Assembly: GCA_965116925.1 (NCBI GenBank)
Contig: OZ220744.1
Coordinates: forward strand, 6,208,955-6,272,954
DNA from: Candidatus Poribacteria bacterium
Lineage (GTDB): Bacteria; Poribacteria; WGA-4E; PCPOR2b
Length of the DNA: 64,000 nucleotides
Reading direction: 5' to 3'
Under the pieces are notes generated by a model. It searched no databases, was not told the origin of the DNA, and worked only from the letters and a program-made list of their open reading frames with translations. Position numbers and translations under genes: made by a program. Of the stretch, positions 47,178-52,777 are shown piece after piece (within the stretch, counting starts at the first letter, position 1; every line of letters starts with the position of its first letter).

Positions 47178-48593
47178 TTAGTATATATCCGTTTTGACTG
47201 CACACGGTACGATGATCGAATCGACCATTCCGTGCAGCACTTTTTTGTCTTCAGGACAGACGGTCGCTTGAATCCCAGCGAGGCGCACCTTTTCACCCAT
47301 GGTAAAATAGTAAGGACGAAGCAGTGCACGCCCCGGCATCCTTTGAACTTCACCCTGCTCAAAATCGTAATAGGTCATGGTGAGACGTTCTGCTCTGTGA
47401 AATTTTTGCAGGATATGAGGGGTTTGGTGAAAACCTGTTAGAGCGTTCTCTACTGCGTCTTCCCAATCTTCGGTGGGAAGGTCATGCCCGATTGAAACCC
47501 CACGACTGCCCCATGCCAATTCAGAGAATCCCGATGGCTTAAGGACAAGTTCCCGTTGACGTTGCGAGACAGGGATGATTTGCCGCCAGTCTGTGACAGG
47601 CAATCCATCGATCTCAAGATCTGGGATAACAGCGTGTGGTGGCAGTTCACGCGGATCGAGCAGCCATGTCTGTGGAATGACGCTCGGTAGGAATTGGTAG
47701 GTCTTCTTGCCAAGTTCTCGTTGCCAGAAGGGTTGGAGGGATGGGTGATGGAACAGGGCAAACATTAGTTTTTCCTCAAGGTATGTCTTGGGCGGTGGGG
47801 TCATGACTACTGTTCGCCTTTTGGCACCGTAGAGCATCAAATCCACCTTGGGGATATTTTTCAGATCAAATAGCTCAAAGAAGCGGTAAAGGACGTCAAT
47901 TTGGACCTTTCCCTCATCCGATTCAAGGAACAACGCATCTTCCGTAAAGATCACGTCGCGGGGTTTGACGGTATAGGCAGCCAAACCGACCTCTCGCAGT
48001 GCCGATTCTAACCACTTCATCTCGTCCCAATAATCCGCGGATTCATCGGACACGACGATTGCTAGCGTGGGGTGTTCAACCTTTGCTAGCGACCTGACCA
48101 TCTCTGCAAAAGCGAGTTGCATCCCATTGCTACCGCCAATGATGTCGTAGTCTAGTTTGGCATATTGTGCCGATAGGCTGCCCGTGAATCCCATACCGCC
48201 GGGGACAGAATCTAATTCAGTGATGGCGAAACCGTCGGGAGTCGGCAAGATGTCAGGACGAATCACTTGCGGCAGTTGACTCTTAAACCGATTCATCCGT
48301 CCGAGTTCTATCACAGACTCAGGTTTTCCCTGATCAAGGTATGCTGCGACCCAATCCGGCTGAATACCACGTACACTCTGCGAGTAGAGCAGATTACAGG
48401 CTTTGTAGAACCGCAAGAGATGTGGCCCAAGTTCCTCAAGCCAATCCAAGTGTTCTTGAAGAATCCAAAATGGCTCCGGCGAAATCCGCCACGTTACATT
48501 GCTATCGGGGTGAACGGCCTTCTGCTCACCGGTGAAGAGCCCCCCTTTGGGAATCTGACTGTTAATAAATAGACACTTTTCTTCAGTGTTCAA
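47178..48593 (-). CDS. Glutathionylspermidine-synthase-like / circularly permuted ATP-grasp protein
   Basis: IRPDIL...F.ITELDSVPGG, LYRFFE, VLKPSG....GSRGV.IG and ILQKF motifs. Confidence 0.6.
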   Translation of the reverse strand: MNTEEKCLFINSQIPKGGLFTGEQKAVHPDSNVTWRISPEPFWILQEHLDWLEELGPHLLRFYKACNLLYSQSVRGIQPDWVAAYLDQGKPESVIELGRMNRFKSQLPQVIRPDILPTPDGFAITELDSVPGGMGFTGSLSAQYAKLDYDIIGGSNGMQLAFAEMVRSLAKVEHPTLAIVVSDESADYWDEMKWLESALREVGLAAYTVKPRDVIFTEDALFLESDEGKVQIDVLYRFFELFDLKNIPKVDLMLYGAKRRTVVMTPPPKTYLEEKLMFALFHHPSLQPFWQRELGKKTYQFLPSVIPQTWLLDPRELPPHAVIPDLEIDGLPVTDWRQIIPVSQRQRELVLKPSGFSELAWGSRGVSIGHDLPTEDWEDAVENALTGFHQTPHILQKFHRAERLTMTYYDFEQGEVQRMPGRALLRPYYFTMGEKVRLAGIQATVCPEDKKVLHGMVDSIIVPCAVKTDIY

Positions 48594-48684
48594 CGAAAAC
48601 TCCTTTATCAGGATTGTCGGATTATCTCAATTCTTTAATCTTTGAATCCCAGTTAAATCTGTTTCATCAACGCTCCAAAATATA

Positions 48685-48713
48685 ACTATAACACTCAGAA
48701 AAAGGGTTGTCAA
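48685..48713 (-). promoter_or_regulatory. sigma70-type promoter for the ATP-grasp gene
   Basis: Minus strand TTGACA-17-TATAGT with TG extension. Confidence 0.6.
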
Positions 48714-48725
48714 ACGAAAATTACC

Positions 48726-48755
48726 TTGACATCTTATCGGTGGGTTTGTTAAAAT
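48726..48755 (+). promoter_or_regulatory. sigma70-type promoter for the aro leader
   Basis: TTGACA-18-TAAAAT with TG extension. Confidence 0.6.
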
Positions 48756-48843
48756 TAAGCGTCTTTGCAAAAAAAAGATTTGCAGACATCTCTAGCAGTT
48801 GATGGAGTTAGGTATCAAATAAAATAGGTACTATAAGAGGCTA

Positions 48844-48969
48844 ATGAAGAATTTCTGCCCACATACCCACATTGCACATCAAACAACGCTGTACTTCCTT
48901 TATCTCTATCTCTTTTTGTTGTATTTGTGCTGCGATGGTGGGCGGGTAGACTTCGCATCGGAGATGTAG
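48844..48969 (+). CDS. Putative Tyr/Phe-rich leader peptide, 41 aa
   Basis: MKNFCPHTHIAHQTTLYFLYLYLFLLYLCCDGGRVDFASEM*, directly upstream of a terminator and DAHP synthase. Confidence 0.55.
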   Translation: MKNFCPHTHIAHQTTLYFLYLYLFLLYLCCDGGRVDFASEM

Positions 48970-48999
48970 AGATTATCCCACATTCAATTGTTCATTGAT

Positions 49000-49040
49000 G
49001 CCCATTATCGAAAACAGGTTCGATGGTGGGCGTTTTTTTT
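49000..49040 (+). terminator. Attenuator terminator
   Basis: 13-bp stem GCCCATTATCGAA/TTCGATGGTGGGC plus 8 T, 23 nt before the aro start codon. Confidence 0.8.
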
Positions 49041-49062
49041 GTCCATAGGAGGCAGTAAAATA

Positions 49063-50127
49063 ATGCAGACCAACGGTACAATTGACAGAAATGTCAAAGA
49101 CTATCAGACCTTGATGAGCCCAAGGCAGCTGCTGACGGATCTTCCAAGAACGGATGCGATGACGCAGACCGTCCAACATGGCAGAACAAGCATCAGAAAC
49201 ATCTTGGATGGCACCGATTCGCGAAAATTCGTTATTGTTGGACCTTGTTCCATTCACGATGCAGAGGTCGCCCACGATTATGCGGCAAGATTGAAAGAGG
49301 TTTCGGACGCCGTTTCGGATCGCGTAGTCGTTATAGTTAGATCCTATTTTGAAAAACCCCGTACCAACTTAGGCTGGAAAGGCTTGATCTACGATCCACA
49401 TCTAAACGGAGCCGGGGATATCAAGGATGGCTTATATATCTCAAGAAGAATATTGATGGATAATCTTGAAATAGGATTGCCGTGCGCCACTGAATATCTC
49501 GAAACCTTCACGCCTCAATATAATTCTGATCTGGTTTCATGGGCGGCTATCGGTGCGCGAACAACTGAATCACCGCAACATAGACAGCTCGCTTCGGGGC
49601 TCTCAATGCCGGTTGGCTTCAAAAACAGCACTCAGGGCGACATCTCCGTCGCGGTCAATGCGATTCTATCTGCAAACGGCGAACACTCTTTTCTGGGAAT
49701 TGATGGATATGGTGCTCCCTCTGTTGTACGAACAACGGGCAATCCATATACCCATATTGTGATACGGGGGAGCAATACGGGTGTAAATTATGATTCACAA
49801 AGCGTTCAGGATATCCAAGAGATGCTGACGGAAGAAGATCTGCCTCCAAATGTGGTGATAGATTGTAGTCACGGAAATTCAGAGAAAGATTACAGCAAGC
49901 AGCCCGCTGTTTTTGAGGAAATATTAAAACAGATTCGTGATGGAAATGATGGGATTGTAGGGATTATGCTGGAATCAAATATTAACGCTGGGAGTCAGAA
50001 AATACCTTCTGACTTAACAGGGTTTGATCGATCCACGCTTGAATACGGCGTTTCCGTCACCGATAGTTGTATTGATTTGGAGACGACCGCTTCACTGCTT
50101 AAGGCTGCACATAAAAGCCTAGCGTAG
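49063..50127 (+). CDS. aroG: 3-deoxy-7-phosphoheptulonate (DAHP) synthase, class I-alpha
   Basis: GPCSIHD, YFEKPRT, IGARTTES..HR, GFKN and DCSHGNS motifs; AGGAGG RBS. The aroG/F/H isoform cannot be resolved. Confidence 0.92.
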   Translation: MQTNGTIDRNVKDYQTLMSPRQLLTDLPRTDAMTQTVQHGRTSIRNILDGTDSRKFVIVGPCSIHDAEVAHDYAARLKEVSDAVSDRVVVIVRSYFEKPRTNLGWKGLIYDPHLNGAGDIKDGLYISRRILMDNLEIGLPCATEYLETFTPQYNSDLVSWAAIGARTTESPQHRQLASGLSMPVGFKNSTQGDISVAVNAILSANGEHSFLGIDGYGAPSVVRTTGNPYTHIVIRGSNTGVNYDSQSVQDIQEMLTEEDLPPNVVIDCSHGNSEKDYSKQPAVFEEILKQIRDGNDGIVGIMLESNINAGSQKIPSDLTGFDRSTLEYGVSVTDSCIDLETTASLLKAAHKSLA

Positions 50128-50192: not shown

Positions 50193-50960
50193 ATGGCATG
50201 GTACGAAACCTTCTTTGATGAGAACTACCTCAAGGAGTATGAGAAAGGGCTTACGCCTGAGCGAGCCCAGAAAGAGGTAAACTTCATCAACAGTGCGCTG
50301 AATCTCCCGCCAGCTGCTCCTGATGCAACCGGGGGTGCGCGAATTCTGGATCTTTGTTGTGGGCACGGAAGGCACACGGTTGAGCTCGCAGCAGCAGGCT
50401 ATTCAATGGTCGGGCAGGACCTTTCAGCCACCTTCCTCGATCTTGCGAAAGATGCCGCTGCAGCGCGCAATCTTCAGATTCAGTTCGTCCATGCGGATAT
50501 GAGAAAGATTCCATTTGAAGATGAGTTTGATGCGATCATCAATATGTTCACGGCTTTCGGCTACTTCGACGACGATATGGAGGATCAGAAAGTCCTCAAC
50601 GCCGTTGGGAGAGCGTTAAAGTCGAGGGGTAAGTTCCTCATAGATCTCCTCAACACCCCGCGGATTATCCGCGACTTTCGCGCTCAAAGTTGGGAAGAAC
50701 TTTCAGATGGTACATTTGTCCTTACCCAACGGGATTATAATCTCCTGACAGGGAATAACGAAGAGCTTCGCGCCTACATTGCTCCTGACGGGAAGGTGCA
50801 CAAAGTTCACTTGACTTGTCGGCTGTATTTCTATACTGAGTTGGCAAAGATGCTCAACCGTGCAGACCTGACGCCGATTCAAGTGTTCGGCGATTATGAT
50901 GGCAGCGAGTACACATGGGATTCAAGGCGGATGATTGTTTTGGCTGAAAAAACAGTGTGA
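50193..50960 (+). CDS. Class I SAM-dependent methyltransferase
   Basis: ILDLCCGHGRH, GQDLS, ADMR, FTAFGYF; AAGGAG RBS. Confidence 0.92.
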   Translation: MAWYETFFDENYLKEYEKGLTPERAQKEVNFINSALNLPPAAPDATGGARILDLCCGHGRHTVELAAAGYSMVGQDLSATFLDLAKDAAAARNLQIQFVHADMRKIPFEDEFDAIINMFTAFGYFDDDMEDQKVLNAVGRALKSRGKFLIDLLNTPRIIRDFRAQSWEELSDGTFVLTQRDYNLLTGNNEELRAYIAPDGKVHKVHLTCRLYFYTELAKMLNRADLTPIQVFGDYDGSEYTWDSRRMIVLAEKTV

Positions 50961-51051: not shown

Positions 51052-51178
51052 AAAGGAGGTGATGAAGGTGGGGTTGACGGCTACCGAAGAACCGGATTTA
51101 CGTGATACCGAAGACAATTTGACATCGTTAGAACAGCGGACGGAACATAGCATAATTACAAAAAAGGAGAATCACACA

Positions 51179-52713
51179 GTGTCTGAGAAAGTTTATATTT
51201 TTGATACAACCCTGCGAGATGCCGAGCAAACACCCGGTGCCGCACTGAATCTTGAGGAAAAGCTGGAAATAGCGAAACATCTCGCAAAGCTGCAAGTCGA
51301 TATTATCGAAGCCGGCTTCCCCGTCTCATCACCCGGCGATTTCGATGCAGTGACACGTATTTCCAATGAGGTTGAAGGACCAGAAATTTGTGCGCTTTCA
51401 CGCGTGGTCGAGAAAGACATTACCGCGGCGTGGGGGGCGATTAAAGACGCACGGAAACCTCGTATTCACACGTTTGTTGGTACATCACCCATTCACCGAG
51501 AACGCATCACACGGACCTCTCCGAAGAGACACTACAGATGGCAATTGATGCCGTCACCTACGCGAAAGATCTATCTGCCGGACACCCCGGTGCAGTTATC
51601 GAATTTTCGCCGATGGACGCCGGACGCACGGAGCCAAGCTATCTTTATGAAGTGGTCGAGGCGACAATTGCGGCGGGGGCGACAGTTGTGAACATCCCTG
51701 AAACGGTGGGCTGGACTGTACCGGCTGAATTCGGAAAACTGATCGCGGACATCAAAGCGAATGTCCCGAACATCGATCAAGCGATTATCAGTGTCCACTG
51801 CCATAACGACCTCGGATTCGCTGTTGCGAACAGTATCGCGGCGATTGAAAACGGGGCAAGGCAGGTTGAGTGCACGATCAACGGACTCGGCGAACGCGCC
51901 GGCAACACCTCGCTTGAAGAGGTTGTGATGGCAATCCGAACCCGTCGAGACTATTACGGCGACTACTATACCGACATCAATACGAAAGAGATCGTTCCGA
52001 TTAGCCGTCGCGTCAGCCGGACGATGGGCATACCTGTCCAACCGAACAAAGCCATCGTCGGTGAGAATGCGTTTGCACACAGTTCTGGCATCCATCAAGA
52101 TGGTGTTATTAAGCAGCGAGATACCTTCGAGATTATTGATCCGGCAGATGTCGGCTGGCAAGAGAGTCAGATCATCCTCAGCCCGCGGTCCGGGCGCAAC
52201 GCACTCAGGCACCGTCTGAATGCACTCGGTTATGAAGTGACGCAAAAGCAACTCGAAAAAGTCTATGAACGATTCCTCAGCGTCGCCGATAAGAAAAAAG
52301 AGGTTCACGATGCCGATCTTGAAGCGATCATGAGAGACGAGGTTCGCTCGATTCCTGAAACCTTCCAATTGGAATACATTCAGGTGGTCAGCGGGACCAA
52401 AATCTCTTCAACAACGACGGTGGGCGTCCGTACCGAAACGGGCATCGTTGAGGAAGCCTCCACCGGCGATGGTCCCGTTGATGCAGCCTACAAGGCAATT
52501 GATCGGGTCGCCAAGATTCCCCTACTGCTCACAGACTACAACATCAGAGCTGTGACCGAGGGAAAGGATGCCATCGGTGAGGTCACAATCAGGGTGCAGG
52601 ACAACGGGCATGTAATTATTGGGCATGGTGCTAGCACGGACATTATTGAAGCGAGCGCGAAAGCCTACATTGATGCCATCAACAAGGTTGTCCACCTGCG
52701 CTACGAAGAATAA
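51179..52713 (+). pseudogene. leuA: 2-isopropylmalate synthase, split by a 1-nt deletion near 51513 (possibly an assembly error)
   Basis: [38 protein letters not shown] and C-terminal GDGPVDA motifs. Adding one G gives a contiguous [14 protein letters not shown]. Confidence 0.85.
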
Positions 52714-52734
52714 GATCAGAAATCCATAAACAAG

Positions 52735-52777
52735 AAAGCCGTAGGGGCACGATATACTGTGTCTCTACGGCTTTTTT
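52735..52777 (+). terminator. REP-derived intrinsic terminator after leuA
   Basis: AAAGCCGTAG(GGGCAC..GTGTCT)CTACGGCTTTTTT. Confidence 0.75.

Follow-up and report, generated by a model that had tools for sequence, protein, structure and literature searches.

A predicted Tyr/Phe leader-peptide attenuator in front of a DAHP synthase gene of Candidatus Poribacteria and its probable re-coded relatives

Layout of the aroG leader region

[quoted passage not shown] This whole stretch is referred to as the window, and plain coordinates are those of the window. An initial annotation had placed a promoter, a short leader open reading frame (ORF), and a terminator in front of aroG and had proposed a Tyr/Phe attenuator of the trpL/pheL type that is set by a translating ribosome. 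The conserved elements and the re-coded paralogues described below strongly support this proposal at the level of sequence comparison. A ribosome-mediated (leader-peptide) transcription attenuator very probably controls the operon formed by aroG, a methyltransferase gene, and leuA. The features of the region and of the homologous elements are summarized in Table 1.

The promoter and the 41-residue leader with 4 Tyr and 2 Phe were both found as annotated. The transcription start predicted from the promoter lies at approximately 48762. A similar promoter is located 5' of the leader in L002, L010, L012, L015, L016, and L017, and the remaining relatives have a different upstream region. The Tyr codons of the run start at 48892, 48901, 48907, and 48922 and the Phe codons at 48895 and 48913, which places 4 Tyr and 2 Phe within 11 codons ahead of the DAHP synthase gene. 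The 12-mer CGATGGTGGGCG occurs at both sites where it had been noted, namely inside the leader (48933–48944), where it is translated as C-D-G-G-R, and in the terminator 3' arm (49021–49032). No further copy is present on that strand of the 6.47-Mb genome, and the sole other genomic copy is the complement, which lies within a paralogous element. The terminator had been described as a 13-bp helix with eight T; the T-run is as described, but the helix is longer, with 16 pairs including G-U (48997–49012 with 49019–49034) and a 6-nt loop, and the structure ends 23 nt before aroG. The downstream DAHP synthase is of the AroF/G/H type, and its gene starts at 49063 and not at 49064.

Table 1. Features of the aroG leader, its putative operon, and the homologous attenuators.
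Feature	Position	Strand	Basis and details
Sigma-70-type promoter	48726–48755	+	TTGACA 48726–48731, 18-nt spacer, TAAAAT 48750–48755, upstream TG (extended); 11 of 12 consensus positions
Shine-Dalgarno-like AAGAGG	48835–48840	+	Read from the sequence; 3 nt 5' of the leader ATG
Leader ORF, 41 codons, MKNFCPHTHIAHQTTLYFLYLYLFLLYLCCDGGRVDFASEM	48844–48969	+	Start ATG, stop TAG (48967); frame open in all 21 leader-bearing loci
Segment 1, 5' strand of the anti-antiterminator (protector) helix	48854–48888	+	Minimum-energy folds, RNAalifold; contains CTGCCCAC (48855–48862)
Sensor run LYFLYLYLFLLYL, codons 16–28	48889–48927	+	4 Tyr, 2 Phe, 7 Leu
Segment 2, core CGATGGTGGGCG at 48933–48944	48917–48950	+	Partner is segment 1 or segment 3 (antiterminator)
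Small hairpin GCATC-GGA-GATGT over the last codons and stop codon	48955–48967	+	Compatible with both folding states
Segment 3, terminator 5' arm, also used by the antiterminator	48997–49012	+	Folding, pair counts across relatives
Segment 4, terminator 3' arm (49019–49034, including the second 12-mer), then eight T (49033–49040)	49019–49040	+	Folding, relatives
aroG-type (class I-alpha, AroF/G/H-type) DAHP synthase, 354 aa	49063–50127	+	NF009395, 462.6 bits; TIGR00034, 430 bits; GGAGG 49048–49052
S-adenosylmethionine-dependent methyltransferase, probably co-transcribed	50193–50960	+	Weak class I methyltransferase matches
leuA (2-isopropylmalate synthase), probably the last operon gene	51179–52713	+	NF002086, 560 bits for the 3' part; alignment with intact relatives
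Intrinsic terminator, first on the + strand after the leader terminator; likely operon end	52732–52777	+	20 pairs, T-run
ileS-paralogous attenuator (L163), leader VPYSLSIHESIRETESRNIRLSIEIISIIIIASCGGGLMETK	Own genome, C1:822080–822335	+	7 Ile in 9 codons; 44 nt before ileS
leuS-paralogous attenuator (L165), Leu-rich leader MYYPQPTNNRFSSQISGVLNLSSLRLCLALALLRVVGGSAPD	Own genome, C1:1126530–1126745	+	Run VLNLSSLRLCLALALLRVVGG; about 300 nt before leuS (1127044–1129593)
Codon run VTTSITTTIST	Before thrS		
Codon runs TYLYYYTSVLF..LYL and RYLYLLYLCCSGGL	Before tyrS		
Ile runs	Before ileS		Both type 1 and type 2 isoleucyl-tRNA synthetase (IleRS)
Leu-rich runs	Before leuS		
Tyr/Phe leaders clearly homologous to that of the window (..HTHIANQT..LYYRYLYAWALFTLFLYLRRDGG..)	Before class I-beta DAHP synthase		NF006421, 492.9 bits; enzyme unrelated to aroG

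Alternative structures of the leader RNA

The minimum-energy fold of the whole leader consisted of a hairpin between segments 1 and 2 (1:2) and the terminator between segments 3 and 4 (3:4), with the Tyr/Phe run in the apical loop of 1:2. In this fold, a long helix that includes CTGCCCAC joins this region to the first copy of the 12-mer, a pairing that the initial annotation had suggested. The annotated ability of that copy to sequester the terminator 5' arm was also confirmed: 48933–48944 pairs with 49000–49011 over 12 pairs to give the antiterminator (2:3). All three structures formed when folded separately, at −25.7 kcal/mol for 1:2, −29.8 kcal/mol for the 2:3 region, and −23.2 kcal/mol for the 3:4 terminator, and the whole-leader fold had a z value of −2.3 against shuffled sequences. 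RNAalifold applied to the relatives recovered the 1:2 hairpin, the small stop-codon hairpin, and the terminator. We also considered TCCCACAT at 48976–48983 as an extra pairing partner, and this candidate was dropped because it is poorly conserved (CCCTT, CCCTC, and CCAGC in relatives).

The helices are conserved among the relatives. In a 19-sequence alignment, 97% of the cells of the terminated fold were paired, and 7 pairs had changed on both sides compared with 2.3 in shuffles. Compensatory changes that recur (A-U to G-C, in 4 sequences) were seen in a single helix, the small hairpin at 48955–48967. Across the aroG-leader relatives 98.9% of the cells of the 3:4 terminator were paired, and the corresponding value for the 2:3 antiterminator was 99% (19 leaders, genus). 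Covariation was judged on covariance-model matches from diverged families, and a set selected by pattern (A2) was set aside, because the search pattern had fixed the columns in question and made them uninformative. In 36 such model-based leaders from several families, 3:4 was paired in 99% and 2:3 in 94% of the cells. Changes in segment 3 were matched in both of its partners, segments 2 and 4: C-G-C is replaced by G-C-G in L196 and by T-A-T in L190, and T-A-T is replaced by T-G-C in L192. Such three-way changes are expected for a strand with two alternative partners. The covarying stems that the initial annotation had named as a check were therefore seen in the diverged families; the situation within the genus is taken up below.

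A long-range helix between 48842–48853, in the leader start-codon region, and 48986–48997, just 5' of the terminator, was also predicted, and one of its pairs shows 3 double changes. This helix might turn off leader translation in the terminated RNA. Its prediction and partial covariation would also suit a leader that acts mainly on translation or mRNA stability, for example through the pairing of the start-codon region or through processing. This explanation is highly improbable, as the ribosome-binding site of aroG (49048–49052) is unsequestered in every predicted fold and the canonical hairpin with its eight U is kept in all family members.

Conservation of the leader among relatives

Of the 20 genomes of the genus, 18 have an aroG-type gene, which also occurs in three further genera of the same family. 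The leader lies 5' of aroG in all 18 of the same-genus loci with the gene and in two other genera. Conservation of the leader ORF had been proposed as a check in the initial annotation, and the frame is uninterrupted in all 21 leader-bearing loci, with retention of the Tyr/Phe enrichment of the run. The four indels among these loci (−6, +3, +3, and −39 nt) are all multiples of three. The run contains 5–7 Tyr plus Phe in the relatives, with synonymous TAC/TAT and TTC/TTT changes. The leader varies in its N-terminal half, which is wholly different in L021; the Tyr/Phe-rich run nonetheless persists there as SYTVYLYSFVLFTFLLYL. Leader identity to the window was 83–97% within the genus, compared with 59–78% at the fourfold-degenerate sites of the adjacent aroG, which indicates that the leader is under purifying selection.

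These data also bear on a different reading of the ORF, in which its product is a functional micro-protein of hydrophobic character and the hairpin serves as an ordinary terminator that acts constitutively, or as an insulator, between this ORF and aroG. The segment LYFLYLYLFLLYLCC does resemble a membrane helix and the terminator is strong. However, the N-terminal half changes freely while the RNA pairing stays, and the "peptides" of the paralogous elements differ in composition according to the gene that follows. With a constitutive terminator 23 nt in front of it, aroG, the sole intact DAHP synthase gene found in this genome, would remain unexpressed, and a micro-protein gives no role to the exact repeat of the terminator 3' arm within the ORF. 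We therefore regard a micro-protein as exceedingly improbable and keep to the attenuator.

Two of the loci deviate from the common arrangement. In L003 (G019, a fragmented metagenome-assembled genome), the 39-nt in-frame deletion removes segment 2, the antiterminator strand, which would render termination constitutive; the deletion may be genuine, or it may be an artefact of assembly. At L022 (G022:C1:2691121–2694741), the leader occurs a second time, and the aroG behind it comprises the first 207 codons only. The genome also has the full locus, L019, of which L022 is a partial duplicate.

Proposed attenuation mechanism

The leader most likely turns on the first enzyme of aromatic amino-acid synthesis upon a shortage of charged tRNA. 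RNA polymerase would start near 48762, and the leader RNA could take either of two alternative folds: 1:2 together with 3:4, the latter being the terminator with eight U, or 2:3, the antiterminator. A ribosome is expected to translate the 41-codon leader during this time. With ample Tyr-tRNA and Phe-tRNA, the ribosome would cross the run and segment 2 and reach the stop codon at 48967; behind it, segment 2 would re-pair with segment 1, segment 3 would be free for segment 4, and transcription would terminate at 49040. With scarce charged tRNA, the ribosome would stall within 48889–48927 and keep 1:2 open and segment 2 exposed. Segment 2 would then capture the emerging segment 3, no terminator would form, and aroG would be transcribed. 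Read-through would in this way respond to amino-acid supply.

Within the 1:2 hairpin, the run lies in the apical loop and the inner 3' strand. The regulatory run always finishes approximately three codons short of the core of segment 2, so a ribosome stalled in it would abut segment 2 without covering it. The ORF of the window family passes through segment 2, which is read as C/R-D/G-G-G, and its stop codon lies 22 nt past the core. A ribosome that does not stall would accordingly cover segment 2 and then sit between segments 2 and 3. The 15 codons ahead of the run would fit exactly one queued ribosome. We modelled stalling by folding the nascent RNA, before segment 4 exists, with one 28-nt ribosome footprint. 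The nascent RNA without a ribosome adopted 1:2 (−40.0 kcal/mol), and 2:3 was the most stable structure for stalls at Leu16, Tyr17, and Tyr20 only.

Several results weigh against this mechanism or qualify it. With the ribosome stalled at any other codon, folding with the 28-nt footprint still favoured the outer part of 1:2 by a few kcal/mol, so that the mechanism has to invoke steric exclusion, or else another ribosome that queues on segment 1. In the full-length RNA the terminated fold was preferred throughout, and antitermination would thus have to rest on a kinetic trap, as it does in known attenuators. Within the genus, 2:3 and 3:4 vary one-sidedly, and their support there is conservation, not covariation. 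The leader ribosome-binding site is a weak point: its 3-nt spacing is short, and AAGAGG is retained in approximately half of the relatives, the others having AAAGAAA alone. Finally, the specificity of the run is not cleanly Tyr/Phe, because half of its codons are Leu.

Re-coded copies of the cassette

A covariance model of the cassette gave three strong matches in the window's own genome (97.2, 96.9, and 88.1 bits); the next forward-strand match scored 22 bits, and reverse-strand reads of the same hairpins scored 34 and 28 bits. Besides the aroG element, the copies in front of ileS and leuS had been found by motif search, and both share the 1:2, 2:3, and 3:4 logic of the aroG element. A genome scan for repeats of the terminator arm (at most 1 mismatch in 10 nt) returned only the aroG element and chance matches; it was too strict and missed both paralogues. 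A hairpin that resembles repetitive extragenic palindromes and a possible second promoter lie between the L165 leader and leuS.

The cassette is widespread. The exact pattern TGGTGGGC-N45-75-GCCYAYYATCG-N4-14-CGRTGRTGGGC was present in 28 of the 29 genomes of the family, compared with 0 for a reversed-pattern control, and the cassette model matched 55 of the 71 genomes sampled across the class. The runs found before the different genes are listed in Table 1, and non-homologous isozymes occur behind the same cassette, namely class I-alpha and class I-beta DAHP synthases and type 1 and type 2 IleRS. The leaders contained 314 codons cognate to the downstream gene, compared with 158 ± 19 when the gene labels were permuted in a crude test (0 of 10000 permutations reached the observed value), although orthologues are not independent in this test. 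The test is otherwise conservative, because the "longest ORF" rule chose the wrong frame in several leaders. Only the codon run of the element tracks the downstream gene, as a sensor read by a ribosome predicts.

The ileS leaders of genus g10 in family f3 (L154–L162) end in ..LIIIIP, with the stop codon 4 nt before segment 2. These leaders stop before segment 2 and the ORF of the window family reads through it, and one homologous cassette therefore has two layouts.

The conserved cassette and the set of controlled genes could also be explained without a translating ribosome. A switch set by a protein or a small ligand (TRAP-, PyrR-, or riboswitch-like) would account for the conserved alternative helices, and the nearly invariant cassette GGTGGGC / GCCCATCATCG is what a binding site might look like. 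A single invariant cassette, however, cannot explain five specificities when the codon run alone varies with the gene. A T-box-like or other tRNA-sensing riboswitch, in which uncharged tRNA binds the leader and stabilizes 2:3 and the ORF is incidental, would match the genes: ileS, leuS, thrS, tyrS, and an amino-acid biosynthesis gene are the set under T-box control in Firmicutes, and GGUGG in segment 2 faintly recalls the T-box sequence. The 2:3 helix is nevertheless continuous, without a bulge for the tRNA 3' end, the indels preserve the frame, and the specificity resides not in a single specifier codon but in runs of 4–7 cognate codons, which belong to a conserved frame that begins with a start codon. 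An Rfam scan of 48500–49200 at E values up to 10 matched no leader family (Trp, Phe, His, Leu, or Thr) and no T-box (RF00230), and the whole window gave nothing at the gathering score; the single match was a chance snoRNA (14.8 bits). A T-box and the known leader families were rejected on the basis of these scans, which likewise matched no known RNA family that a ligand- or protein-set switch might represent. Control by a protein or a small ligand is thus very unlikely, and there is next to no probability of a tRNA-sensing riboswitch.

Returning to the leader-peptide attenuator, we consider it likely that the aroG element belongs, as one of its copies, to an attenuator family that is ancient, class-wide, and programmable. 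The cassette GGTGGGC ... GCCCAYCATCG ... CGRTGRTGGGC, followed by a U-run, would have been duplicated and re-specified by rewriting of the codon run. The family would form a T-box-like regulon of ileS, leuS, thrS, tyrS, and DAHP synthase and would have survived isozyme replacement, and the aroG run may be bivalent.

The aroG operon and the leucine codons

No + strand terminator and no strong promoter were found between aroG, the methyltransferase gene, and leuA, and the three genes probably form one operon under the control of the leader. Compared with the intact genes of L011 and L018, leuA has lost 1 nt from a short run of C near 51522 in this assembly, which splits it into two overlapping frames (51059–51691 and 51538–52713); the cause is either an error of sequencing or a frameshift of recent date.

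The signal, which the initial annotation took as aromatic, may not be purely so: Leu codons make up half of the run, and leuA is probably part of the same transcript as aroG. Because 7 of the 13 run codons are Leu, leucine starvation should stall ribosomes there too. A DAHP synthase gene followed by leuA is found behind a Tyr/Phe-type leader in families f1, f2, f3, and f4, whichever class of DAHP synthase is present, and a Leu-rich member of the cassette lies in front of leuA in family f6. The Leu codons were not accepted as proof of leucine sensing, because the tyrS leader of a sister family has a near-identical LYLLYLCC run without leuA downstream. Bivalent sensing by the aroG run, of Tyr/Phe and of Leu for the co-transcribed leuA, is therefore a tentative proposal whose chances we put at a little under even.

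A genome-wide scan for codon-enriched small ORFs before terminators was very noisy, and it exposed a separate trp-type attenuator with a different terminator in the own genome (C1, approximately 4581450–4581990, minus strand). Its leader, MQTLNRQPQFQIASHHWHWWWHRVEGSSVPLLR, contains the run HHWHWWWH (4 Trp and 4 His in 8 codons) and lies ahead of hisI (126 aa), with trpE next in line. This genome therefore does combine mixed leaders with mixed operons. If the bivalent reading is true, the Tyr/Phe and Leu run would match the class-wide DAHP synthase-leuA operon, as HHWHWWWH matches hisI-trpE.

The own genome also carries a remnant of a class I-beta DAHP synthase (C1:4585709–4586300, minus strand), which lacks the middle of the enzyme and consists of approximately 57 N-terminal residues fused, in a different frame, to approximately 115 C-terminal ones. 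Of the two DAHP synthase classes covered by the search, which did not include class II, the only intact gene is thus the aroG of the window.

Comparison with known attenuators

In trpL (Rfam RF00513), the stop codon lies just before segment 2, so that a terminating ribosome masks segment 2. The aroG leader resembles trpL in that the ribosome position would choose between antiterminator and terminator and in that super-attenuation by 1:2 is expected if the leader is not translated. Unlike in trpL, a ribosome on the aroG leader would pass over segment 2, and the trpL-like layout occurs in the ileS leaders of a sister family.

The closest functional parallel is the aroR leader peptide (Phe-Tyr-Phe) before the aroF DAHP synthase operon of Corynebacterium glutamicum, where stalling raises transcription (Neshat et al. 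2014, as summarized in PMC11802643). Both systems place a leader with Phe and Tyr codons ahead of a DAHP synthase operon. They belong to different phyla, and the short Phe-Tyr-Phe sensor of aroR differs from the 4 Tyr and 2 Phe among 7 Leu in the 41-codon leader found here. The Poribacteria element also belongs to a multi-gene family that shares one cassette, a comparison in which aroR enters by its functional description only. The initial annotation knew of no description of such an attenuator in the lineage. The lineage and the RNA family are indeed new, but a Tyr/Phe leader before a DAHP synthase is known from C. glutamicum (PMC11802643).

The pheL-pheA and pheST attenuators of Escherichia coli are controlled by leader peptides, according to the accounts in PMC11802643 and PMC3082878. 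The aroG leader shares with them an aromatic codon run in a short ORF and alternative 1:2, 2:3, and 3:4 helices, and control of a synthetase gene, as in pheST, recurs in the ileS, leuS, thrS, and tyrS paralogues. In contrast to pheL and pheST, the element does not match Rfam Phe_leader (RF01859), its leader is approximately three times longer, its run is found not in segment 1 but in the loop of 1:2 and along its inner 3' strand, and its ORF reads through segment 2 and ends beyond it.

Leader-peptide attenuation of synthetase genes outside Proteobacteria has precedents in the classical attenuators predicted before leuS and trpS in Streptomyces (PMC1262725) and in the His leader before a hisS paralogue or hisZ in bacilli (PMC2965389). 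Unlike these isolated cases, one cassette here serves at least four synthetase genes and DAHP synthase across the class. In the T-box riboswitch regulons of Firmicutes, uncharged tRNA is read through one specifier codon and an acceptor-binding bulge (PMC2494555). The Poribacteria family is similar in that a small coded element gives a new specificity to one conserved terminator/antiterminator scaffold and in that synthetase and amino-acid biosynthesis genes are controlled, and it differs in having an ORF with codon runs and no T-box match. A literature search that paired Poribacteria with attenuators returned no paper.

The mechanism is of the textbook kind, and what is new is the lineage, at the level of the phylum, and this RNA family. 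The proposed attenuator would extend leader-peptide attenuation to an uncultivated candidate phylum. A single cassette re-specified by a change of the codon run alone would be a natural, compact, and apparently portable design for an amino-acid-responsive switch. Further interest comes from the class-wide re-coded copies and from a Tyr/Phe leader that appears to have outlasted the replacement of its enzyme. The codon run would serve as an annotation handle that predicts the amino acid linked to the downstream gene in these genomes, and a Tyr/Phe leader would point to the DAHP synthase, of whatever enzyme class, through which entry into the aromatic pathway is controlled. The conserved DAHP synthase-leuA operon behind a leader rich in Tyr, Phe, and Leu hints at a coupling of aromatic and leucine synthesis, for which there is no obvious textbook rationale.

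Neighbouring and minor observations

The promoter of the leader is one of a divergent pair within 48685–48755. The minus-strand promoter (TTGACA 48713–48708 ... TATAGT) also agrees with the consensus at 11 of 12 positions and faces a divergent gene at 47178–48593, whose 471-aa protein matched no NCBIfam family.

A Met-rich small ORF (..NMTMYMPGMGIAVAVSM..) with a terminator lies after a promoter and before a threonine-synthase-like gene in the own genome (C1:1533583–1533860, minus strand). The cassette model scored 19.9 bits at this site, which we list as a weak candidate for a further attenuator.

A degenerate copy of the aroG leader (L182, G007:C1:6118102–6118219, with equivalents in G009, G010, and G011) is located approximately 6 kb upstream of aroG and scored 68.8 bits. 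It has no Tyr/Phe run, its segments 2–4 are mutated, and it precedes genes for a 185-aa protein and a Gfo/Idh/MocA-type oxidoreductase.

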